This document shows, piece after piece, positions 2,215 to 57,300 of a stretch of 64,000 nucleotides of DNA (position 1 is the stretch's first letter; the number at the start of each line of letters is the position of its first letter). A program made the translations under genes and the position numbers. The notes beneath the pieces are model-generated. The model saw nothing but the letters and a program-made list of their open reading frames with translations, made no database searches and had not been told where the DNA came from. The stretch is from NCBI GenBank assembly GCA_029262635.1, contig JAJCZA010000005.1, positions 607,371 to 671,370 of the forward strand, given 5' to 3'. This DNA is from Vampirovibrionales bacterium (GTDB lineage: Bacteria; Cyanobacteriota; Vampirovibrionia; Vampirovibrionales; Vampirovibrionaceae).

Positions 2215-2871
2215 TTAAACTTGTGATGCGTAAGTTAATTCTCGCTTAATGTTACCCACTATTCTATCAGCATTTGGAACCAACTTTAAAACAAAAGCAC
2301 GAACCTCAGGATAAGGCGAATCATAAAAACGGGTTAAAATCCCCATGCGTTCGTTATCATCTAACTTTTGGACAAGCGTCGTTCCGGCTTCCTGTGTCTC
2401 CTCATTCTCATCATTTACTTGTACATACCCATCGTTTAGCTGTTTTCGGATCTTCTGGAAATGTTCGGAATAAGGGCTCTTTTTTGCTGCGTTGAGTTCT
2501 GCCCTTAAGGCTTTTAAAGCATCATTATGAGTCGGTTTTATGACCATTTCAGCAATTCGTCGAGCCGCTCCGGGCTTCATCTGGATCCCTTGAGTGGAGG
2601 AGTTAAGCTGGAAAGCAAATCCGTTGGGCGATTCTGATGGCTTTTGGGCTGGCCGATGGTTGGCGATTATTTGAAGACCCAATAAAAATATCAAAAAGTA
2701 CGCCCCTCTCCGGATTGTCTTTAAAATTTTGGGGGGACGGTTTTGAGCCTCCAGGAGGCGCTGTGTTTCAAGTTGAGTAGGCATCTTGGGGGTGTTTTTT
2801 GTACCAAACATAGGCTGAACTTGAGGAAGCTGAGTCCTTGGGGTGAAGGGGGACAATGGTGATGTCTGCAT
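2215..2871 (-). CDS. Hypothetical protein with one transmembrane segment and a P/Q/T-rich N-terminus ending in ...QPMFG
   Basis: 218-aa ORF with a GGAGG RBS and one hydrophobic stretch (AYFLIFLLGLQIIA). No family recognised. Confidence 0.7.
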   Translation of the reverse strand: MQTSPLSPFTPRTQLPQVQPMFGTKNTPKMPTQLETQRLLEAQNRPPKILKTIRRGAYFLIFLLGLQIIANHRPAQKPSESPNGFAFQLNSSTQGIQMKPGAARRIAEMVIKPTHNDALKALRAELNAAKKSPYSEHFQKIRKQLNDGYVQVNDENEETQEAGTTLVQKLDDNERMGILTRFYDSPYPEVRAFVLKLVPNADRIVGNIKRELTYASQV

Positions 2872-23693: not shown

Positions 23694-24086
23694 ATGTCCA
23701 TGCTTAAAAAGTCCCTCCGCCTTAAATCTTCTCGGCAATTTTCTCAAACGCTCCGTAATCGACAACGTTATGTTGATCGTTGCTTTGCTGTTTATGCTTT
23801 GAGACGACCTGAACAAGCGGCAACAGCGGTTTCTTTCCTCCCGCGGTTTGGGTTAATTGTTAGCAAGAAGACCGAAAAACGGGCTGTTCGACGTAACCGA
23901 ATAAAGCGTCAATTTCGGGAGATCCTGCGAACCCAGATTATCCCGGAGTATTCTGCTCGTTTAAGCCACTGGCAAACGGTGGTGATTATTATCCGTCCTC
24001 AGGCCCTGAATACGCCGTTCGATCAGTTGAAACTAAAACTGAAACAATGCTTTACGAATCTTCCGATTTCGTCCTTAAATAAATAA
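23694..24086 (+). CDS. rnpA: Ribonuclease P protein component
   Basis: Motifs RLKSSRQF and RFGLIVSKKTEKRAVRRNRIKRQFRE (RNR motif), located after rpmH. Confidence 0.93.
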   Translation: MSMLKKSLRLKSSRQFSQTLRNRQRYVDRCFAVYALRRPEQAATAVSFLPRFGLIVSKKTEKRAVRRNRIKRQFREILRTQIIPEYSARLSHWQTVVIIIRPQALNTPFDQLKLKLKQCFTNLPISSLNK

Positions 24087-43351: not shown

Positions 43352-44326
43352 TTACTTCCCTCCAAAAAAGGTGCCCATCGCAGTAATGACCATTGGCCCC
43401 ATCAACACGATAAACAGAGGCGGGAAAATAAATAGAACCAAAGGAAAGGTCATTTTGATGCTGGCTTTGGAGGCCAGCTCTTCGGCCGCTTGTCGTCGTC
43501 GGGTTCTGACATCATCGGCATAAATACGTAACGCCTCTGCGATACTTGTTCCCAATTTATCGGCTTGGACAATCATGTTGCACAATGAGTTTAGTTCGTC
43601 GACACCTGCTCGGGTCCCCAGGTTACTAAAGGCTTCGGATCGACTAATTCCAGCGTTTAGCTCTTTTGTGACACGCTGAAATTCAAGTGAAATATCGGGT
43701 GCCATTCTTTTGGTTTCTTCTCCAACGCGCTGAATTGTGGAATCCAGTCCAAGACCGGCTTCCACACAAACGACCATTAAGTCCAGTGTGTCGGGCAATG
43801 TATATCGAATTTCAGTTTTTCGCTTGCCTGCTTCCAGCTTCAAACCGAGAGGTGGGATATAACGACCCACAACGACACCGCCAAATAGACCAACAAAACC
43901 CCATATTAAAGCCTGAGCAAAGCCCATGGTTGTTAGGCTCAGAAGAAAAGCAATACCTGCCAGTACGATGCCGATGACGAGGCCGGTTGCGATTTGAATT
44001 GCTAAAAAGCGCCACACGGCTTTATCAGAGTCGCTTTTTCCAGCTTCGGTTAATAGGGCTTTAATTTGTATTTGGTGTGAATAATTGTTTGAATAAAAGG
44101 AGCGAGAAATTGGTTCGACTAGTTTAATCAGTGTCTCTAGTATCAGGTCACGATCTTTTGCCCCGCCAATTTCGTCTCTCGATTTTAAGGCTCGTAAACG
44201 GGCATGTACGGGATTCTCTTCGGGCACGATTACAGAGAGCAAGCCCAATACCAAAACAAAAGCTGCAACAGCGAGTAAGCCTGCGGCCATAAAAATCATA
44301 AGGGTTTGGGTGTTATCGTTATCCAA
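43352..44326 (-). CDS. tadC: Tad pilus inner-membrane platform protein TadC
   Basis: Motifs LPDTLDLMVVCVEAGLGLD, QADKLGTSIAEALR and KMTFPLVLFIFP. Confidence 0.92.
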   Translation of the reverse strand: MDNDNTQTLMIFMAAGLLAVAAFVLVLGLLSVIVPEENPVHARLRALKSRDEIGGAKDRDLILETLIKLVEPISRSFYSNNYSHQIQIKALLTEAGKSDSDKAVWRFLAIQIATGLVIGIVLAGIAFLLSLTTMGFAQALIWGFVGLFGGVVVGRYIPPLGLKLEAGKRKTEIRYTLPDTLDLMVVCVEAGLGLDSTIQRVGEETKRMAPDISLEFQRVTKELNAGISRSEAFSNLGTRAGVDELNSLCNMIVQADKLGTSIAEALRIYADDVRTRRRQAAEELASKASIKMTFPLVLFIFPPLFIVLMGPMVITAMGTFFGGK

Positions 44327-44350
44327 TTTTGAATACCTGTTTTTGCTTTC

Positions 44351-45361
44351 TTATACTCGAATTTCAATGACTTTTTTCATAATAAAAAACCCAATACATT
44401 GCATGATGCCAGCCACAACAAGCATAATATGGCCAATCTCATTTTCGATTAAGGGAGCAACATAATCCGGCATAAATAAGGACAAGAAACCGAATAGGGC
44501 TACAGGCGCTCCACCTAAAACGTATCCAGTCATTCGGGATTGTCCGGTCAGTGCCGAGATTTGGCCTTTTAGTTTGAACCGTTCTCGAATGGTATAGCCG
44601 AGCTTGTCAAGGACTTCGGCCAAGTTACCGCCAGCCTCCCGTTGAATCAAAACGGCTGTTGTGAGCATACGGACATCAGGCAGGTCAACACTTTCAACCA
44701 TTCGTCCCATGGCTTCTTTAACAGGGATTCCCATATTGATATCATTCACCATCGCCAGAAATTCGCTTGCGATGGGATCTTTCATTTCATAGCCGACGAC
44801 GCCGATGGCGGCTTGAAACGAATGGCCAGCCCGAAGAGAACTGGTTACGAGGCTTAATGCTTCGGGGAGTTGTTTTGTAAATGTGGCCAGTCGTTGATTT
44901 TTTCGAAAACTGAGTGCAAAAATAGACAGTACAGGGATGCTAAGAGACATCAGAAGAAAAATAAAACTTTTACTGACCAGAAATAGGATAAACCCAATGC
45001 CAAAAGGACCGGCCATAAAATAAATGATAAACTTATCCACGGGCATTAAGAGTCCAGCTTGTAACAAATTCTTTTTAAGTGTGCTGGTAAAACTGTATTT
45101 TTCGAGTAGCTTTCCGAGTGCGGCATTATCATAGGTTTTATCCCGAAACATATCACCTAAATGCCTTTCTTTTAATTCACTCCGCCGGAGCTGTTCTTCA
45201 TTGTGTTGCACTTTGATTTTAGAAAGACGTTGTTGCATAAACGTGGGCTCAGGGCTTAAAAAGGCTTGCAGAAAGTACAGTGCGGCTCCGATTAAAAGAG
45301 CCAATAGGCCAAAAACAACGACAATGGCGACAAACATGAGCAATGTTGATGAATCTGCCAT
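44351..45361 (-). CDS. tadB: Tad pilus inner-membrane platform protein TadB
   Basis: Motifs QLPEALSLVTSSLRAGHSF and IQREAGGNLAEVLDKL..TIRER. Confidence 0.92.
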   Translation of the reverse strand: MADSSTLLMFVAIVVVFGLLALLIGAALYFLQAFLSPEPTFMQQRLSKIKVQHNEEQLRRSELKERHLGDMFRDKTYDNAALGKLLEKYSFTSTLKKNLLQAGLLMPVDKFIIYFMAGPFGIGFILFLVSKSFIFLLMSLSIPVLSIFALSFRKNQRLATFTKQLPEALSLVTSSLRAGHSFQAAIGVVGYEMKDPIASEFLAMVNDINMGIPVKEAMGRMVESVDLPDVRMLTTAVLIQREAGGNLAEVLDKLGYTIRERFKLKGQISALTGQSRMTGYVLGGAPVALFGFLSLFMPDYVAPLIENEIGHIMLVVAGIMQCIGFFIMKKVIEIRV

Positions 45362-45433
45362 GATGCTAAGTCCTTACTTTGTATGCCATTGTTTTACACA
45401 CTCACTTCTGTTTTGAAAAAATTTTAGCAAAAG

Positions 45434-47032
45434 TTACATTGAATCTCGACGCTTTAGAATATCCCGAAGACTCTCTCCATTCGAGGGAATTTTGGGGGCA
45501 GGACGACTACTAACCTCTGTAGTTTTTAATTCTTCATCCGGTTGTGTCTCGGGTTCTTTTGATAAAGGCTCATCGATAGCTATTCCCAAAACATCGCGAG
45601 CCGACTGCTTTTCAAAATATTCTAACGGTAAATCAATATTTTTTATTTTGCACAGTTCGGCGAACCGGGGCCGAACCCCGGTTGCGACGTGGGCCCCAAT
45701 AATTTTCCCATCACTATCCAGTCCAATTTGTTCATATTTAAAAATTTCCTGCATGGTAATCATGTCCCCTTCCATGCCAATAACTTCAGCGATGCTGGTG
45801 GTTTTACGAGAGCCATCCATGAGACGGCTCACCTGAACAATCAGATGAACGGCAGAAGCAATTTGTTGTTTAATGGCTTTTTCAGGTAAAGGGTTATCAT
45901 TCATTAAACACATGGTCTGGATACGGGAAATAGCGTCTCGAGGTGTATTGGCGTGAAGTGTTGTTAGGGAACCATCGTGGCCTGTGTTCATGGCTTGAAG
46001 CATGTCTAGCGTTTCCCCACCACGACACTCACCGACAATAATACGATCGGGGCGCATCCGCAACGAGTTAATCAAGAGTTTCCGAATCGGGATGGCTCCT
46101 TCGCCTTCAATGTTGGCAGGGCGAGATTCCAAACGGACTACATGCTCTTGTTGGAGCTGAAGTTCTGCCGCGTCTTCCATGGTGACAATACGCTCATCAT
46201 TAGCAATTAATGCGGATAAGCTATTGAGCATGGTTGTTTTACCTGACCCCGTACCTCCAGAAATAACAACATTTAAATGAACCTTAACGGCGGCAATCAA
46301 TGTCTCGGCCATGGCCTTGGTCATAGACCCCCAACCCAGCAATTTATCGAGTGTTCCTGCATCGGCTTTAAATTTTCGGATGGTCACCGCTGCTCCATCA
46401 ATGGAGAGTGGTGGAATAATCGCATTAAAACGGGAACCATCGTATGGCTGACCGTCTGCTTTAATTCGTGCATCAACCAAAGGCGTTCGTTCATCGACCC
46501 GACGACCAACAGAGGAAACAATCCGCTCAATGACATGCATGAGGTGGTCGTTATCTTTAAATCGGATACTGGTCAACTCTAGTTTGCCGTTTTTTTCCAC
46601 AAATACTTTATTGGGGCCATTGATCATAATCTCGGAAATAATTGGGTCGTGGAGTAAGCACTCAATGGGGCCATGGCCCATAATTTCTTCAACCAGCTCC
46701 CGAACCAGCACTTCGCGCTCAGGGCGGCTCATTGGAATTTTATCGATTTGTAAAAACTGCTCTAAAAATTGATGAGCTGCTGTCGTAATTTCGCTGGCAT
46801 CCAGATTGTCATCTGGACCAATATTCATGTTATCCACTAATTTGCTGTGGATTTTTGATTTCAGGTCCTCAAACCGTTCACTCTTTGTGGTGACCTTATT
46901 TTCGTCTTGTTCGTTCATCAAGGGAGAGGGACTTCCGGAAGACACCAATCCGCTAGGCTCGTTCGTGGGTTCAGAAGGAAGACCTGTCCGTTGACTTTTA
47001 TTCGCTTGATTGAGTCGATCCCGAAGTGACAT
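45434..47032 (-). CDS. tadA: Tad pilus assembly ATPase TadA/CpaF
   Basis: Motifs [37 protein letters not shown] and AMNTGHDGS. Confidence 0.95.
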
Positions 47033-47058
47033 AAAATGATAACCTTTTTATTGACCCT

Positions 47059-48276
47059 TTATTTGCCAAACATGGAGAATAGGTTTTTTTTGCCCGCTTT
47101 TAGCGAAGAGGCATTGGTTGGTATCTTTGTGCTTCCTTGAATTAACCCGGTTATTTGACGAGAAAAATCGAGGAAATTTTGATAAACGGTTTTTCCATTT
47201 TCTAGCGAATTAATGGGAACCCCTCGGTTAATAGCGGTCATAATTGAAAAATAATTGTTTGGAATTTTCCAAAAGACATCATGTTCCAGTGTCTGTTCTA
47301 CATCATCAATAGTAATCTCTTCGTCCGGGACATAGCGGTTTACAATGAGTTTCACTTTTTCCTTGTCATAGCCGAGTCGTTCAAATAGCGTTAAAACTCT
47401 TTGACTGCTACGGATACAAGGTAAATTGACCATGGAAACCAGAAGGATATTATCCGCTAAATCTAATGCAGTTAGGGTTTTTGAGTCAAATGAGGTGGTG
47501 GTGTCGATCACCACGTATTCAAACGTTGCTTTTAACACGGTTAAAACCGTATTAATTTGGTCTGCCGTTACTTCTTCGGCTTCTTCCACATGAAGCGGAT
47601 CGGCTAAAATGTATAAATTGGATTGATCATAACGAAAGTTGGCCAATGAGGTTTCCAAGTAAGTGGCATCGACCCGTCCAATATTCTTGGCGATATCCAC
47701 AATAGTTTGCTTGGGAATCACGTCAAGAAAGGTGGTAATGTCCCCTAGCTGAAGGTTTAAATCAACCAGAGCCACGGGCTTATCTGTAATTTCAGAGAGT
47801 GCCAATGCGGTATTTACCGCGATGGTTGTTTTCCCTAAGCCACCTTTGTTGCTGAATACGGTTAGAATACGGCCGCTTGTATCCCCTCCGACATCAACAC
47901 TCAACGAACGTCGGTGTTTGACGACTAACTCTTCCAGTGCTTCTAGGGTAAAGGGGCGTTGCAAAAACTCTCGGGCTCCGGCTTGCATACACTCCATAAT
48001 CGTCTGCATATCCATTTGATCACCGGAGGTCACCACCATGATCTCTTTAAAATAAGTCGAAATTCGTGTCATAATCTCCAGGCTTTTGGTCTGATCTTCC
48101 CGGAGATCCACAAATACCATGTCGGGTCGGTTTTGCCGAACCAGTTCATAGCCATAAATTAAACTATCTGTTTCAGCTAGAATTTCAACAATGCCGAGTT
48201 CATTATAGGCGTCTCGGATGGCGGCTCTTGCTTCCGGATCGTGTTCAATAATAATGGCTGTAAAGATTTTACCCAT
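47059..48276 (-). CDS. cpaE: CpaE/TadZ (receiver-like domain plus MinD/ParA domain)
   Basis: N-terminal REC-like domain (QAGAREFL), plus KGGLGKTT and VDLNLQLGD. Sits between the secretin and tadA. Confidence 0.88.
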   Translation of the reverse strand: MGKIFTAIIIEHDPEARAAIRDAYNELGIVEILAETDSLIYGYELVRQNRPDMVFVDLREDQTKSLEIMTRISTYFKEIMVVTSGDQMDMQTIMECMQAGAREFLQRPFTLEALEELVVKHRRSLSVDVGGDTSGRILTVFSNKGGLGKTTIAVNTALALSEITDKPVALVDLNLQLGDITTFLDVIPKQTIVDIAKNIGRVDATYLETSLANFRYDQSNLYILADPLHVEEAEEVTADQINTVLTVLKATFEYVVIDTTTSFDSKTLTALDLADNILLVSMVNLPCIRSSQRVLTLFERLGYDKEKVKLIVNRYVPDEEITIDDVEQTLEHDVFWKIPNNYFSIMTAINRGVPINSLENGKTVYQNFLDFSRQITGLIQGSTKIPTNASSLKAGKKNLFSMFGK

Positions 48277-48315
48277 TGATTTTAGTTCCTGTTAACTGTT
48301 TTTCGAATGATTCGA

Positions 48316-49881
48316 CTATGGTTTTTCAAAATATTTTCCAAAATCTGACTTGTCCAACACATGAGGGGTCACCAGAATGACCAGCTCCGTATTTAATTTT
48401 CGGTAAGCTCCGTTTTTAAAGAATTTACCCAAAATCGGTAAATCGCCAATGAACGGGACGGACTCAAATGTGTTGTTTTCTTCTCGGGTCAAAATGCCGC
48501 CCAGCATGAGGGTTTCTCCATCATGCAACTGAACGGTTGAGTCCGCTGTCCGCTTCAACAATCCGCAGACCTGAGCCCCCCCGGCACCTGGCACACAGTT
48601 GGCAGTATCAATACTGCTAACTTCCGGTGCGATTCGGAGTTCAATTAAACCGGTCCGAATGTTGACCCAAGGGGTAAATTCAAGTCCTACACCGAACTCC
48701 CGGAACGAGATAATGGGGCTCCCGTTTTGGTCTGTTCCAGAGGTGAAGGGGAACTCCCCCCCGGAGAGGAAGGAAGCCGTTCGTCCATGGGTGGCAACGA
48801 GTTTGGGTTCCGCTAGAATGGAAACTTTTCCATTGGTTTGCAGAAAGTCAAAGGCCGCATCCAAAGAGTTGCCAAATCCCATGACACCTGTTAGTCCACC
48901 GACGTTATTCGCTTGTTGTAAAAATCGAACTGATCGATCTACATTTAAAGCGGCACCTGCCAGAGCCGTTCCGATATTGGTTCCAGGTGAAAGAGTTGAG
49001 CTTGCGCCTAGGGCCAATGCAGTCACATAGGTGGGGTCCAGAGCGGATTGAAGACGGGTTACGGTAAAGTCTTGTCCCTGGGTGGCAAAGGATGTTCTTA
49101 AGTCTCGAGCGGTGCTTTTATTCATTTGAACAATTTTGACTTCAAGTACGACCTGAGGGATCGGTGTTTCGGTCAAGTCCACGAAGTTTTCAGCCCGATA
49201 CCCATAAGCACCAGCTGTTCGGCGGATTTCATCCAGAATTACGGAACTGGAGACTTGACCTGAAATTAAAAACGAATCATCCGTAATGCGAACATCAATG
49301 TTTTCTCTTGGGGCGATGGCGTTAATCGTTGCCATGAGTTCGGTGGTGTCATTTTGGACATGGAGATCGAAAATGCCTTCTTGTCCGTTTTCATCCCAGA
49401 CGATTAAACTGGTAACGCCCCTTTGGCGACCGTTGATCATTAATTGATCCGGTGACAGTGGGATAATATCCGCTAATTGTGGATTGGCAATGGATAAGCG
49501 CATAATGGGCTGAGCAAATTTGACGATTTGAGAGCGCCCTCGGGTCACGGTAAGTGAAGTGACATTTCCTCGAAGAATAGGAGTCTCTTCACTTTTGTTT
49601 TCCGCTTGGCCACTGGGGGTATGATCCTCTTCTAACTCTTGTAACGCAAACCCTGAGCTTGGTAATGATGAGGGTGTGCTGTTGGCGATGGTATTGATGT
49701 CTTTTGGCGCATTTTTTGAGAGTTCTTTTATGATGCCGTTACCGTAAGGCTGGATCAAATGGTTTTGTCTCTCAAGGGCGTGTAATGGAGAAAATCCGCC
49801 TGTGACCCAAAGTGTTCCAACAACCAATGTTGTTGCTATCCATGGTTTCAATGGATTTAGATTAATAAACCCCGTTCTCAT
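48316..49881 (-). CDS. cpaC: Tad secretin CpaC/RcpA
   Basis: Pil_N domain (RLSIANPQLAD, GVTSLIVWD), QVVLEVKI, LAEPKL..ASFLSGGEFP and PFIGDLPILGKFF..ELVILVTP. Confidence 0.92.
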   Translation of the reverse strand: MRTGFINLNPLKPWIATTLVVGTLWVTGGFSPLHALERQNHLIQPYGNGIIKELSKNAPKDINTIANSTPSSLPSSGFALQELEEDHTPSGQAENKSEETPILRGNVTSLTVTRGRSQIVKFAQPIMRLSIANPQLADIIPLSPDQLMINGRQRGVTSLIVWDENGQEGIFDLHVQNDTTELMATINAIAPRENIDVRITDDSFLISGQVSSSVILDEIRRTAGAYGYRAENFVDLTETPIPQVVLEVKIVQMNKSTARDLRTSFATQGQDFTVTRLQSALDPTYVTALALGASSTLSPGTNIGTALAGAALNVDRSVRFLQQANNVGGLTGVMGFGNSLDAAFDFLQTNGKVSILAEPKLVATHGRTASFLSGGEFPFTSGTDQNGSPIISFREFGVGLEFTPWVNIRTGLIELRIAPEVSSIDTANCVPGAGGAQVCGLLKRTADSTVQLHDGETLMLGGILTREENNTFESVPFIGDLPILGKFFKNGAYRKLNTELVILVTPHVLDKSDFGKYFEKP

Positions 49882-49936
49882 CGTGTTTCTTCCTCTTTTG
49901 TCTCTCTAGCCGGTGTTAGCCAATATCATATGGAGA

Positions 49937-50980
49937 TTAGTACTGCCATTGAAAATTTTTGGATTCGCTGTTGGCCCCTTTATAGATTTCCATTTGAAAA
50001 GTTTGATTTTCGGGTTCGGGTACTGCGGGTTCTGGTAAGGCTTCTGGATTTTCTGAATAATTGACTGGAATATCATTGGGTAGATTGGGAACATTGTGTT
50101 CAGAAAAACCGACCTGCTTTAGATCAGCCGGGCTCAGACCATTGATGAGTTGCCCTATGTCAGAACCATAGAGGGTGGTTTCCTTTTTATCGCCAAAACC
50201 ACGGAGAGCCAAGTGGAATTCGGCGACCTTATTAGCCAAAGCAAGTGTTTCAGCTTGAGCTGGAGTGACCTCCAGAGTGACGGCTCCTTTTGAACTCTTT
50301 TGAGCTGTACTTGCGGGAGGTTTTCCTCCACTGGGCGATGAGGAGGGGGCCTCACCCGAGCTAATAACACGAACATTTTGAAGCAGTGTTTTAGCCATTT
50401 CCGATTTGGGGAATGTGGCCATAACATCAACAAACATTCCTGATGCGATGGCACCATCCACCGAGGCGATGTCGTTTACTTTGATGCTGACGGCTCGCAT
50501 GCCCTTTGTTACTGGAACCATGCCTTTGGTATCGAGTAGTTTTGTTCGGGTTATGATCTCGCCGGGCAATAAATCCATGGACGAAATTTTTCCAACCACA
50601 TTGGATACTCTGGAAAAGCTTTCCATAGAAGGCCGGTGACCGGGTTGCAATTCGACTTCTTTTAACATGCTTTCTTCAAGCCGGGTTCCTAAAGGGACTT
50701 TTACGGCTAGTTGAACCTCGGTGTATTTTTTAGTTCCTGAAGAATGGCCAGAACCCTGTTTTTGCAGTTGTTCCACTTGTTTCTCGAGTAGAGCCATCTT
50801 CTTTTCTTTTTTCTTTAGTTCTTCTTGATGCTGTTGTTGAGCTATTTCGTTATTGGCCGTGATGCCTGTAAACAAAAGAAAGAGCAAGGCGAGGCCGATT
50901 CCGCCGACGACAAGAGCAATGACGGTTGCCACAGCGAATTGTACAAATGCTTTTTTAGGTTTTTTGGGACTGGCCATCAT
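49937..50980 (-). CDS. cpaB: Flp pilus assembly protein CpaB/RcpC
   Basis: N-terminal TM, SAF-like region, and motifs GMRAVSIKV, GMFVDV, KTLLQNVRVI and VTLEVTPAQAETLAL. Confidence 0.9.
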   Translation of the reverse strand: MMASPKKPKKAFVQFAVATVIALVVGGIGLALLFLLFTGITANNEIAQQQHQEELKKKEKKMALLEKQVEQLQKQGSGHSSGTKKYTEVQLAVKVPLGTRLEESMLKEVELQPGHRPSMESFSRVSNVVGKISSMDLLPGEIITRTKLLDTKGMVPVTKGMRAVSIKVNDIASVDGAIASGMFVDVMATFPKSEMAKTLLQNVRVISSGEAPSSSPSGGKPPASTAQKSSKGAVTLEVTPAQAETLALANKVAEFHLALRGFGDKKETTLYGSDIGQLINGLSPADLKQVGFSEHNVPNLPNDIPVNYSENPEALPEPAVPEPENQTFQMEIYKGANSESKNFQWQY

Positions 50981-54810: not shown

Positions 54811-55680
54811 TTAGCCGAGTTTTAAACCACATTGGCGTTCTAAAAAGTCTCGAAGAGAATTTATGTTGAGCACCCTTCCCCGTTTGCAGTCTCCGTTTAG
54901 ATTGCCTTCGATTAAAATGCCGATTAAATCACCTTCTTTATTATAAACAGGACTTCCGGAGTCTCCGTTTTTAATTTTTCCACTCATATATTCTAGATTG
55001 AAGTCCGAACCGATATCGGCTTGTTCTAAGAGGGTTGTTATCTCAACCTTATCTATAAACCCTTGTTGTCTTGAAGAGCAAACAATCGCTGGTTCGCCTT
55101 GACGAAGGTTGAGTCCCAGGAAACTGGACGGTGCTAATTGAGGGGGATGAGACACGAGTCGGCCATGGCCTTGGGTGGGCTCTAGTAACATGAGGTCATT
55201 GTAATACATGATATCCGGGTAGAGTTCGTCAAGCCAGTCCTTTTTATCGTATTGCTGAACAATTTTGGCTAGGCCGGAAACATTCTGTTGTTTTTTGGGG
55301 TCTCTTGAGCCAAAAAAGAACTCGGCCATTCCGTGTAACTCCATCGTGTTGGCCTCAAACAAATGGCGGCAGGTTAAAATGTAGTAGGTTCCTGTTTTTA
55401 TGTCGCGAATCCACACACCTGAACCATTAAAGGAATAGTTATTACTACGGAGGCTTACGGTATTTGGCCGGAGAGACTCGGCAACGTCATCTAATGGTTT
55501 AATCGGTTTAAACCATGAACGCCACCACCCTACAACCCTTGTAGGCGTTTCGGGTAATTCCAGTTGCCCTGGCGGTGAACAGTTCCCTTTGAAACTTAAA
55601 GAAAAAGTTGAAAGGCTGTGTTGAAATGGCTGATTCATCGAAGGGGATGGGAAGGGTCTCGAAACAGCTTGTAATTTCAT
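54811..55680 (-). CDS. Trypsin-like (S1) serine protease with a signal-less N-terminal extension ending in SFKG
   Basis: Motifs GSGVWI, ILTCRH (His), NDLMLL (Asp) and NGDSGSPVYNKEGDLIGI (Ser). Confidence 0.8.
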   Translation of the reverse strand: MKLQAVSRPFPSPSMNQPFQHSLSTFSLSFKGNCSPPGQLELPETPTRVVGWWRSWFKPIKPLDDVAESLRPNTVSLRSNNYSFNGSGVWIRDIKTGTYYILTCRHLFEANTMELHGMAEFFFGSRDPKKQQNVSGLAKIVQQYDKKDWLDELYPDIMYYNDLMLLEPTQGHGRLVSHPPQLAPSSFLGLNLRQGEPAIVCSSRQQGFIDKVEITTLLEQADIGSDFNLEYMSGKIKNGDSGSPVYNKEGDLIGILIEGNLNGDCKRGRVLNINSLRDFLERQCGLKLG

Positions 55681-55691
55681 GAGATGCTTTC

Positions 55692-55729
55692 TGTTTGAAA
55701 CACGTGTTTAACTTGTCGTGTTTCAAACA
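55692..55729. promoter_or_regulatory. Perfect 13-bp inverted repeat just upstream of the protease start
   Basis: TGTTTGAAACACG-N12-CGTGTTTCAAACA, 11 nt from the ATG at 55680. Confidence 0.55.
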
Positions 55730-55935: not shown

Positions 55936-57300
55936 ATGGATTTCTTCATCAAAGTCATTATGGCCATGGTTTTTGGCGTCAAGCGTCATTGGCAAATTCT
56001 TATTGCGATCCTGCTTGGTTTTCTTGTGGGCCTGATTTTTTACAAGTACCATTGGGCTCAGACGGAGCAAGGCCAATTCTCCCTGGCCCTTTTTGACTTT
56101 GTGGGTAAGGTCTTTATCCGGCTGATCACCATGATTGTGATTCCCCTTGTGGTGAGTTCACTGATTGTTGGTGTGTCTTCTCTCAAGGATGTTCATCAGT
56201 TAGGGCGTATGGGCGGAAAAGTGTTTAGTTTTTTCCTTCTTTTTATGGTGATTTCAACAATTATTGGCGGTACCTTGGCCTATGTTATTCCTTCAGGAGA
56301 AAATATGCGTCCGGTTATCGAGCATATTAATGAAGAACGGGCGCAATCGTCTCATTATGAGGAGACGATGAGTGAACTAAAAACGTTGATTGTTCAACCG
56401 AAGGACTTTAAAGTTATTTTGTTGGAGATGATACCTGAGAACCCAATTCAGGCTTTGTCTACAGGGAATATGGTCCCGGTTATTATTTTTACCATTCTTC
56501 TGGGCTTTGCTCTGGCTTTTATTGGCCCGGCTGGTAAACCAATGATCTCCTTTTTTGAATCTCTTTTTACCGCAACCATGAAACTGACGGACTGGTGCAT
56601 GACGCTGGCGGTTCCGGGTGTCTTTGCCTTGGCGTTTGTTGCGGTGGCCTCTAGCGGAACGGAAATGCTGTTGAAGCTCCTTCCTTATGCTTTGCTGGTT
56701 ATTTCTGGTCTGCTTTTACAGATTGTGGTGGTTTTCCCCACTTTACTGTATCTGTTTGCTCGGGTGGATGCCCTGAATTTGTACCGTGCCATCTCGGAAG
56801 CCATTCTTGTTGCTTTTGGGACCGCTAGCAGTTCAGCCACCTTGCCGATCACTATTGCCAACTGCGAATTGCGAGCGGGTATTTCCAACCGTATTGCTAG
56901 TTTTGTTATTCCAACGGGCGCCTCCATTAATAAAACGGGCACCACCATGTTTGAGGTGATTGCCGTTTTGTTTCTGGCACAGGCTTATAATATTCCGATT
57001 GATCCGGTGACGGTTAGTATGATTGCCGTATTGGCTATTATCGCTTCGGTGGCCGCTGCCGGGGTTCCTAGTGCGGGTTTGATTACCATGAGTGTTATTA
57101 TCACCAGTATGGGTTATAATATGACGTTACTTGCCAGCGGGATTGCCCTTCTTTGGTCCATTGACCGCATATTGGACATGTGCCGGACCGTTACCAATGT
57201 GATGAGCAGTGTTACGGTTGCCACTATTGTTGCGGCCAGCGAAGGTGAGTTAAAACGGGATCTGCTGAACGATCCCACGACTTGGAAAGAAACCTTGTAG
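55936..57300 (+). CDS. Dicarboxylate/amino acid:cation symporter (DAACS, GltP-like)
   Basis: Motifs FIRLITMIVIPLVVSSL, AFGTASSSATLP, FVIPTGASINKTGT, AAGVPSAG and DRILDMCRT. Confidence 0.92.
   Translation: MDFFIKVIMAMVFGVKRHWQILIAILLGFLVGLIFYKYHWAQTEQGQFSLALFDFVGKVFIRLITMIVIPLVVSSLIVGVSSLKDVHQLGRMGGKVFSFFLLFMVISTIIGGTLAYVIPSGENMRPVIEHINEERAQSSHYEETMSELKTLIVQPKDFKVILLEMIPENPIQALSTGNMVPVIIFTILLGFALAFIGPAGKPMISFFESLFTATMKLTDWCMTLAVPGVFALAFVAVASSGTEMLLKLLPYALLVISGLLLQIVVVFPTLLYLFARVDALNLYRAISEAILVAFGTASSSATLPITIANCELRAGISNRIASFVIPTGASINKTGTTMFEVIAVLFLAQAYNIPIDPVTVSMIAVLAIIASVAAAGVPSAGLITMSVIITSMGYNMTLLASGIALLWSIDRILDMCRTVTNVMSSVTVATIVAASEGELKRDLLNDPTTWKETL

Follow-up and report, generated by a model that had tools for sequence, protein, structure and literature searches.

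An N-terminal Phe-Gly leader on a PDZ-less trypsin-like protease and on many orphan proteins of a Vampirovibrionales bacterium

Background

What is the N-terminal stretch of a protease for, if it resembles none of the familiar signals? The question is raised by a window of 64,000 nucleotides from a Vampirovibrionales bacterium (assembly GCA_029262635.1, contig JAJCZA010000005.1, positions 607,371 to 671,370 of the forward strand), whose minus strand holds, at 54811..55680, the coding sequence of a serine protease of 289 amino acids, with its stop codon at 54811-54813. An initial annotation of this gene proposed that its first residues, which end in LSFKG, form an export signal common to the whole lineage and carried by diverse cargo. 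We are committed to the view that this leader is a functional recognition tag specific to protein N-termini, and that the protease is one of the tagged proteins; we infer that the tag is read. Coordinates given below are positions in the window unless a contig or locus is named, and the genome from which the window was taken is called G000.

Results and discussion

A Phe-Gly motif at the N-termini of many proteins

Genes of G000 were predicted with a home-made caller, which combines hexamer log-odds with overlap resolution, and selects starts by coding score, Shine-Dalgarno and start-codon weights. It yields 3163 genes, of which 2595 encode at least 80 amino acids.

The form F-[KT]-G, initially described as common at the N-termini of Melainabacteria orphan proteins, is not enriched: FKG is found in residues 1-38 of 19/2595 proteins, against 26/2595, 13/2330 and 12/2054 in the next three windows along the proteins, and FTG in 17, against 14, 20 and 15. 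The counts do fall after the N-terminus for P-x-F-G (57, against 17, 16 and 9), for [RQKH]-F-G (103, against 54, 35 and 39) and for FSG (60, against 35, 21 and 20). An unbiased count of tripeptides over residues 2-35 points to the same forms: FSG, with 55 observed and 21 expected (z = 7.4), and QFG, with 28 observed and 9 expected (z = 6.3), are the top enriched non-hydrophobic tripeptides at N-termini.

Two models were cross-validated. A hidden Markov model, with a threshold of 4 bits, was trained on one half of the contigs at a time and applied to the remaining half. It recognizes 39/1347 and 59/1248 N-termini in the two test halves, against 5/1202, 2/1000 and 1/830 internal windows in one, and 7/1107, 2/915 and 2/737 in the other; the same N-termini give 3 and 9 hits when reversed, and 6 and 5 when shuffled. 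A scoring matrix refined by expectation-maximization, anchored on F-x(0,1)-G alone with no other prior, finds 50/1347 and 54/1248 N-termini, with internal windows ranging from 2/928 to 10/825. In cross-validation the matrix thus marks 104/2595 N-termini (4.0%), whereas it marks about 0.6% of internal windows. The hits are concentrated at the start of proteins: among the 1684 proteins of at least 220 amino acids, the N-terminus has 95, whereas residues 71-140 have 11, the middle of the protein 10 and the C-terminus 5.

The matrix prefers P, V or I at position -2 and R, H or Q at position -1, and, between F and G, favours S and next to it Q; K (-0.45) and T (-1.65) are penalized in that place, the favoured forms being F-G and F-S-G. 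The broader leader is a stretch poor in acidic residues and rich in S, T, P and Q that ends in [P/V/I]-x-[R/H/Q]-F-(S)-G. Part of what the matrix captures is composition, and it is tuned to that of its own genome; trained on itself it retains 184 proteins at 4 bits or more, which is an over-count relative to the cross-validated 104. False positives exist: they include several housekeeping enzymes whose domain starts near residue 10-35. A candidate RNase P protein, identified by its N-terminal sequence and located at 23694-24083 (plus strand) just upstream of the YidC gene, is a false positive with 6.4 bits that come from its own conserved F-G-L motif at residue 52.

The leader of the protease

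Residues 1-57 of the protease (55510..55680, minus strand) form a leader rich in S, P and Q by composition, and predicted to be disordered, with an AlphaFold2 predicted local distance difference test (pLDDT) score below 50. Its first 32 residues, which do end in LSFKG, contain 8 S, 4 P and 3 Q, and there are 8 Ser in the first 50. The first acidic residue is E41, and position 3 is L. The motif, F30-K31-G32, lies at 55585..55593 on the minus strand, in the context SLSTFSLS-FKG-NCSP.

Scored with the full matrix, the F30 site reaches 7.3 bits and ranks 46 of 2595. With a matrix trained without contig C5, it reaches 5.09 bits, which still exceeds the threshold of 4 bits set for class members, whose F-x(0,1)-G site has to lie in residues 1-70; at the 5-bit level this second matrix accepts 37/1347 N-termini (2.75%) and 7/4375 internal windows (0.16%). 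The protease also has the composition of the class, being acid-poor, rich in S, T, P and Q, disordered from residue 2 to the motif, and aliphatic at position 3. It very probably belongs to the Phe-Gly leader class.

There is a slim chance that the match is accidental, in which case the N-terminus would be a disordered pro-region or linker, and FKG would have no function. FKG itself is not enriched at N-termini, much of the score comes from S/L/P-rich flanks, the homologue P0001 scores only -1.3 bits, and the AlphaFold2 model shows neither structure nor docking for residues 1-57. However, few internal windows reach the score obtained with the independent model. Moreover, a Phe followed by a Gly within two residues is kept at residues 24-32 in the protease (FKG) and in its homologue P0003 (FSG, with 7.8 bits at QFSG), and P0001 has the related FFKG, despite leaders that otherwise differ among the three proteins outside this site. 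The wider protease family, described below, carries the motif repeatedly.

A true start downstream of the leader would also have removed it from the protein. The home-made caller indeed chose Met15, and there is no clear Shine-Dalgarno sequence before either M1 or M15. Yet P0001, which is 70% identical to the protease, starts with MKLQAL and lacks a counterpart of Met15: since the MKLQA N-terminus is kept in a protein without that internal Met, M1 is the best-supported start, and the leader is translated. The gene call of the genome record, P0002 (54811-55344, minus strand, 177 amino acids), starts at Met113. It is too short, since it deletes His106 and the first barrel of the protease domain; automatic callers may systematically truncate leader-bearing genes in this way.

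The window contains a second example that the initial annotation had likened to the protease, an orphan protein of 218 amino acids at 2215..2871 (minus strand) without any Pfam family. The likeness holds for the leader, which reads MQTSPL...QPMFG, with F22-G23 at 2803-2808, and scores 5.0 bits with the full matrix and 5.24 bits with the C5-free one. Behind its leader the orphan has a K/R-rich stretch and then a membrane helix, and the protease has no such helix.

The protease and its relatives

The protein is, judged by its sequence and its predicted model, a PDZ-less serine protease of the HtrA/MarP type, active-looking and free-standing. It matches the Pfam family Trypsin_2 (PF13365) over residues 86-255 with 33.2 bits, the curated cut-off being 27.6, and with 34.5 bits in a search of the whole genome with this family. 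The catalytic residues are His106 (55363..55365), Asp162 (55195..55197) and Ser241 in the motif GDSGS (54958..54960), all on the minus strand. They follow the order of the family, and are invariant in A1, an alignment of the protease with two close homologues, and nearly invariant in A2, an alignment of ten family members. The intact triad announced at the outset is thus confirmed, as is the lack of a PDZ domain and of a hydrophobic signal peptide: no Pfam PDZ family matches even at E up to 10, and no 19-residue window within residues 1-150 reaches a mean hydropathy of 1.6.

An AlphaFold2 model built on A2, and thus resting on ten sequences, predicts a chymotrypsin-fold domain over residues 61-289 (54814..55500, minus strand), with a predicted template modelling (pTM) score of 0.67 and pLDDT between 70 and 89 over most of the domain. 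Its elements are two beta-barrels, preceded by a helix at residues 63-73 and followed by a C-terminal helix, past which the protein has 5 more residues. The best Foldseek matches are Rv3671c/MarP of M. tuberculosis, DegS, DegP, DegQ and the plant Deg5, with E about 1e-9, template modelling scores (normalized by target) of 0.70-0.77, and 14-20% identity to the solved chains. At least 500 PDB chains match at E ≤ 0.001, and all of those among the matches listed are S1C/HtrA-type protease chains. MarP, DegS, DegP and Deg5 are known from extracytoplasmic compartments.

The protease shares with the MarP and HtrA enzymes of family S1C the double-barrel chymotrypsin fold and the His-Asp-Ser triad and, like MarP and Deg5, it lacks a PDZ domain. 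It differs from the HtrA subfamily (DegP, DegQ, DegS), whose members have a C-terminal PDZ domain and a signal peptide or anchor, and from the MarP family, which has four N-terminal membrane helices. All NCBIfam protease matches are sub-threshold, with 12 bits for MarP (NF033740) against a cut-off of 250. Weak PADLOC matches to LmuA (1e-7; residues 68-124, or 48/425 profile positions) and to RT-Protease_XI (1.6e-5; the protease part only) raised the possibility of a Lamassu LmuA-type or reverse-transcriptase-fused defence protease. This was rejected: the matches are partial, and no LmuB-like or reverse-transcriptase gene is adjacent.

Close relatives are rare. A word-index search of 5.8 billion proteins returns two matches, P0001 and the record's own truncated P0002. 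An exhaustive search of 1.84 billion representatives returns four proteins at E ≤ 0.001, of which P0003, with 42% identity, is the sole one to span the whole query. A profile search for further homologues leads to generic HtrA/DegP proteins, and a scan of genome contigs to one unrelated fragment with 37% identity in a Faecalicatena record. Among 60 related genomes, the protease has a match at E ≤ 0.001 in 4/24 of the same family and in 0/36 of the others; next to the homologue in G015, the neighbouring genes differ from those of the query. The protein used as its own query finds no paralogue in G000.

Weaker matches in three relatives, G003, G010 and G016, are tandem genes of trypsin-like proteases that all have the same order of parts: an N-terminal tail with repeated h-x-F-(x)-G motifs, a K/R-rich stretch, a membrane helix, a linker, and the protease. 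One copy in G010 (L005:2309-3295, plus strand), among three in tandem with membrane anchors, has lost the catalytic His and Ser (GNGSWGG) and is probably a pseudo-protease. The N-terminal Phe column is kept in 9/10 family members of A2. Where relatives have the membrane helix, the protease has an aromatic-basic segment, VVGWWRSWFK, at residues 49-58 (55507..55536, minus strand); P0001 and P0003 have similar stretches of W/F plus K/R, which may have a role in membrane contact.

The genome itself encodes eight Trypsin_2 proteins, five of them with a leader-type tail, and in 4/5 of these a membrane helix or Sec-type signal comes after the leader. The protease studied here is the only one of the eight without any hydrophobic segment; the other seven have a Sec-type signal, a membrane helix or a hydrophobic N-terminus, recognized in some by a hydropathy scan and in some by eye. 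It is thus natural to ask whether the leader is an N-terminal extension of Sec-type signals, one that tunes or localizes Sec export. Such extensions exist: the extended signal peptide region (ESPR) of autotransporters and the YSIRK-G/S motif of Gram-positive surface proteins are both conserved, and both lie in the N-region of Sec signal peptides. The succession of leader, K/R-rich stretch and hydrophobic helix in the four proteases, in the relatives from G003, G010 and G016, and in the 2215 orphan, fits this explanation, and a motif N-terminal to a hydrophobic core is what these proteins, together with 12/86 of the strongest positives, share with ESPR and YSIRK. The latter count is also its weakness: a hydrophobic segment within 70 residues after the motif is found in 12/86 strongest positives and in 227/1990 controls, so that most leader proteins have no core to extend; the sequence motif is unrelated to those of ESPR and YSIRK. 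We consider the explanation improbable. It would make of our protease, just as improbably, a derived copy that has lost its hydrophobic core and whose leader no longer routes it, but the helix-less form is kept with an intact triad in P0001 and P0003, which is unlike decay.

Properties and cargo of the leader-bearing proteins

The Phe of the motif lies anywhere from about residue 5 to about residue 70, and the motif can occur up to three times, 25 proteins having two or more sites. In positives with Phe at residue 22 or later, residues 2-12 lie outside the matrix window, and can thus be compared independently. Over these residues, 100 such positives have 3.5% D/E, against 10.0% in controls; 69/100 have no acidic residue at all, against 614/1869, and 18/100 have Ile at position 3, against 140/1869.

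What follows the leader is diverse. The cargo parts of the 184 positives fall into 161 BLAST sequence clusters. A Pfam scan at E ≤ 1e-4 of the 85/184 positives located in the 20 densest 20-kb stretches leaves 50/85 without a family, whereas 13/55 non-positive genes of the window have none at E 1e-10; since the control used the stricter value, the true contrast is at least as large. The median length of the positives is lower as well, at 234 amino acids against 324. The part of the original claim that concerned a shared leader on diverse cargo was therefore sound: it stands on many unrelated, mostly orphan proteins, far above controls. True N-terminal extensions are present in, among others, a ClpP-like protein, a Lon_C protein, two PrkA, a DEAD/DSHCT helicase, an adenosine deaminase, an M17 aminopeptidase, an S8 subtilase, another Trypsin_2 protease and an ankyrin protein.

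Some of the genes are grouped. A leader-bearing cluster at G000:C2:31747-42305 is made of the ClpP-like protein, with an extension of 117 residues, the two PrkA (941 and 777 amino acids) and a small orphan; a second FlhB gene lies about 10 kb away. Seven consecutive leader-positive genes, none with a Pfam family, occupy G000:C2:440135-446312, and similar small tandem sets are found at C24:97044-99653 and C2:514606-516291. In small leader proteins such as those at C5:163465-163809, C2:158142-158803, C24:22911-23186 and C5:278421-279002, an alternating hydrophobic strand can be seen by eye directly after F-G, and a motif resembling Y-[YLI]-[AVL]-T-G-[DNK]-[DE] 30-60 residues after it; this suggests one very divergent family that BLAST does not cluster. 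Finally, a protein of 491 amino acids (G000:C2:559145-560620) has 70 initial residues made of FG, FSG and FGG repeats, rich in Q, N and P, and reminiscent of FG-repeat low-complexity domains.

Such cargo invites another explanation, in which the leader is a short linear motif that works in the cytoplasm, where a hub protein would use it to tether proteins, recruit them, or mark them for turnover, with additional copies adding avidity. One to three copies in a fast-evolving disordered stretch, of which orthologues keep F-(x)-G and little else, are what such a motif would look like. The K/R-rich residues between the motif and a following helix imply that the leader should face the cytoplasm, the ClpP-like, Lon-like, PrkA, DEAD/DSHCT helicase and M17 aminopeptidase cargo is usually cytoplasmic, and the weak PADLOC matches of the protease are to intracellular defence proteases (LmuA, RT-Protease_XI). 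The protease would then work inside the cell or at the inner membrane face, perhaps held there by its W/F-plus-K/R segment. However, a docking motif would be expected at C-termini and in internal loops too, and the counts are 95 against 5 and 10-11. Ile is preferred at position 3 and acidic residues are scarce already from residue 2, which suggests a signal that takes in the extreme N-terminus; the structural relatives of the protease are extracytoplasmic enzymes, and it has no LmuB-like or reverse-transcriptase partner gene next to it. Cytoplasmic docking or turnover is possible, if doubtful, and falls little short of export in likelihood.

Spread among relatives

If the leader were lineage-wide, as first proposed, it should be visible in other genomes. 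We applied the same caller and matrix, with the threshold of 4 bits, to samples of 400-716 kb; the genomes are related, and the counts are given without cross-genome statistics. A size-matched 400-kb sample of G000 has 37/367 N-termini at 4 bits or more. The 400-kb samples of two genomes of the same family, G009 and G001 (family f1), have 4/348 and 4/323, and those of three other families 4/378 (G026, family f3, 400 kb), 5/358 (G053, family f8, 400 kb) and 6/649 (G050, family f5, 716 kb). The internal windows of these samples have 0-4 hits each.

The matrix being tuned to G000, we also counted [RQKH]-F-G in the first 40 residues. It occurs in 10/348 proteins of G009, against 7, 4 and 2 in later windows, in 12/323 of G001, against 10, 3 and 4, and in 3/378 of G026, against 5, 8 and 5. 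By eye, there are about 10 clear leaders in G001, about 6 in G009, and almost none in the three samples from other families.

Orthologues of the ClpP-like protein are found in G010, G018, G016 and G015, which represent four other genera of the same family, and in G027, of a second family (f2). All keep one to three F-(x)-G in an N-terminal extension that has otherwise diverged almost wholly. As far as sequence comparison can tell, this is the best evidence for constraint on the motif. The claim of a lineage-wide leader thus holds in part: the signal is strong in its own genome, weaker in two genomes of the same family, and kept by orthologues in a second family, but it is not evident in the 400-716 kb samples of three others.

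Known signals and candidate readers

The familiar N-terminal signals were compared with the leader by inspection, using their usual definitions. The protease has no hydrophobic core, no RR and no prepilin-type motif such as G-FTLIE or G-xxxxEY behind a short leader, which rejects Sec, Tat, lipoprotein and prepilin signals; likewise, Tat, lipobox, prepilin/Flp and double-glycine leaders give no match. The Cys that follows FKGN, C34, comes without a hydrophobic core, and is replaced by Tyr in P0001. Processing of the Prp type, known for ribosomal protein L27 of Firmicutes, was rejected too: L27 begins here with MAHKKG and has no extension, the L21 and L27 genes being adjacent. No description of a Phe-Gly leader was found in the accessible part of the literature on secretion and N-terminal signals in Vampirovibrionia/Melainabacteria.

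Type III secretion substrates come closer. The motif by which the flagellar gate recognizes its substrates is FxxxΦ, where Φ is hydrophobic. The Hop rules for effectors of Pseudomonas syringae ask for a Ser content above 10% over residues 1-50, for Pro or an aliphatic side chain at residue 3 or 4, and for the absence of acidic residues up to residue 12; early flagellar subunits have a two-part signal. The leader resembles such signals in being disordered, strictly N-terminal, acid-poor, Ser/Pro-rich, and aliphatic at position 3. The likeness is compositional, and comes in addition to the presence of two sets of export genes. The flagellar motif itself was rejected, since the matrix has no hydrophobic preference at F+4. 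We know of no type III signal that has a conserved Phe-Gly, is repeated, or stands before a Sec signal; the leader differs on all three counts.

Genes that could serve a type III route are present: FliP, FliQ, FliR, FlhB, FlhA and FliF each occur twice in G000, with 26-42% identity, at several loci. Two flagellar-type export sets make such a route possible. Flagellar-type loci lie at C5:417736-423223, C5:478705-480759, C2:52341-53447, C22:76784-87604 and C20:31363-37645, and the genome has two clusters of rod proteins. FHIPEP, the FlhA family, has two members in almost every complete genome of families f1-f3, and none was found in the two f5 genomes.

Other machines are poorer candidates. A Tad/Flp cluster lies in the window itself, at 43355-50980 on the minus strand, with two T2SSF proteins (TadB/C-like), a T2SSE ATPase, a receiver-plus-AAA_31 protein (CpaE-like), a secretin with a pilus N-domain, and RcpC/CpaB. 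It is not linked to the protease gene, from which three unrelated genes separate it, and the leader contains no Flp-type motif. A type IV secretion system has been proposed for V. chlorellavorus (PMC4451040); in the main text of that article the terms "signal peptide" and "N-terminal" occur 0 times. The VirB4 family, Pfam CagE_TrbE_VirB, has 0 matches in G000 (95.9% complete), in G001 and in G009, and matches in 6/61 genomes only. With no VirB4 match in G000, a type IV system such as the one proposed for V. chlorellavorus cannot be what reads the leader in this genome, and was rejected.

We can now propose a scenario. The protease would descend from membrane-anchored proteases of Vampirovibrio-like bacteria, having lost the membrane helix and kept the disordered tail. 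This tail would carry one copy of [P/V/I]-x-[R/H/Q]-F-(S)-G, here SLS-FKG, a motif that would mark about 100 mostly orphan proteins of the genome, at N-termini only. The tag would most likely be read on the cytoplasmic side by a lineage-specific factor. Our best guess is a hand-over to a non-Sec export route, with one of the two flagellar-type type III gates as the leading candidate, and the protease would act outside the cell or in prey, as one of several tagged hydrolases. Among the consequences that the tag may have, export is the most likely, and we put it forward tentatively.

Several observations weigh against this scenario. On the side of the protease, the K at the middle of its motif counts -0.45, its score comes mostly from the S/L-rich flank, and P0001, reading FFKG, is at -1.3 bits. 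On the side of the class, repeats and a variable position are unlike known type III signals, and a hydrophobic signal or anchor after the leader is neither enriched nor depleted. In the four proteases with a Sec-type signal or helix, the leader would lie on the cytoplasmic side, with no need for a second export route, and a leader combined with a Sec signal is ill-suited to a stand-alone type III signal. PrkA, Lon-like proteins and DEAD helicases belong to families that are normally cytoplasmic and need ATP. Family f3 has two FlhA copies in 19/19 genomes, yet the 400-kb sample of G026 lacks the leader signal. Lastly, the caller is simple and unvalidated, and its starts are imperfect, as the protease gene exemplifies.

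The presence of ATP-dependent cargo can also be turned around. There is an outside chance that an epibiotic predator uses the Phe-Gly leader to mark about 100 effectors, this protease among them, for injection into prey; since PrkA, the Lon-like protein and the helicase depend on ATP, they could then only work inside another cell. It is no likelier that delivery uses the second, order-wide flagellar-type type III set, which would be an injectisome evolved independently of the proteobacterial one. In a bolder variant, by analogy with plastid transit peptides, the leader would steer effectors onward inside algal prey. Transit peptides have FGLK motifs, and acid-poor, Ser/Pro-rich F-G leaders resemble them.

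The upstream hairpin and neighbouring genes

The protease gene is preceded, as initially noted, by a perfect inverted repeat of 13 bp with a loop of 12 nt (55692..55729, minus strand), which ends 11 nt before the ATG. Its arms, TGTTTGAAACACG, are at 55692-55704 and 55717-55729. As RNA, the region (101 nt) folds at -27.2 kcal/mol, with z = -4.0, and 0/200 shuffles fold as well. The genes that flank the protease gene encode an aldehyde dehydrogenase and an SDF symporter (55936-57300, plus strand), and the hairpin sits in the divergent intergenic region common to the protease and symporter genes. It is not followed by a T-run, and could be a stem in the mRNA leader or an operator. Besides the two arms, the 13-mer has one exact copy and four sites with one mismatch in the genome; with one further exact copy, it is not an interspersed element or a repeat family.

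The hairpin was also held to be part of a design shared with the 2215-2871 orphan, and here the comparison fails: the best perfect stem in the 80 nt upstream of the orphan has 5 bp, with loops of up to 16 nt allowed. The 42%-identical homologue (locus L002) has no counterpart upstream either. As a shared element of leader-bearing genes the hairpin was rejected, perfect stems of at least 10 bp being found in the 80 nt upstream of 5/184 positives, and of 0.8% of 2401 others.

Conclusions

For annotation, the lesson of this locus is that gene callers truncate such genes: the call of the genome record loses His106. For the biology of the organism, about 4% of its proteins have in common an N-terminal tag unlike any described signal with which it was compared, namely Sec, Tat, lipoprotein, prepilin and double-glycine signals, the Prp-type leader of L27, and the known type III motifs. 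If the tag is a true address label, it defines the set of secreted or injected proteins of a predatory relative of cyanobacteria, and points to a new reader protein. Should it instead serve for docking in the cytoplasm, it would be an unusual example, among bacteria, of a short linear motif that is proteome-wide yet restricted to N-termini. On either reading, it provides a handle on dozens of orphan genes.

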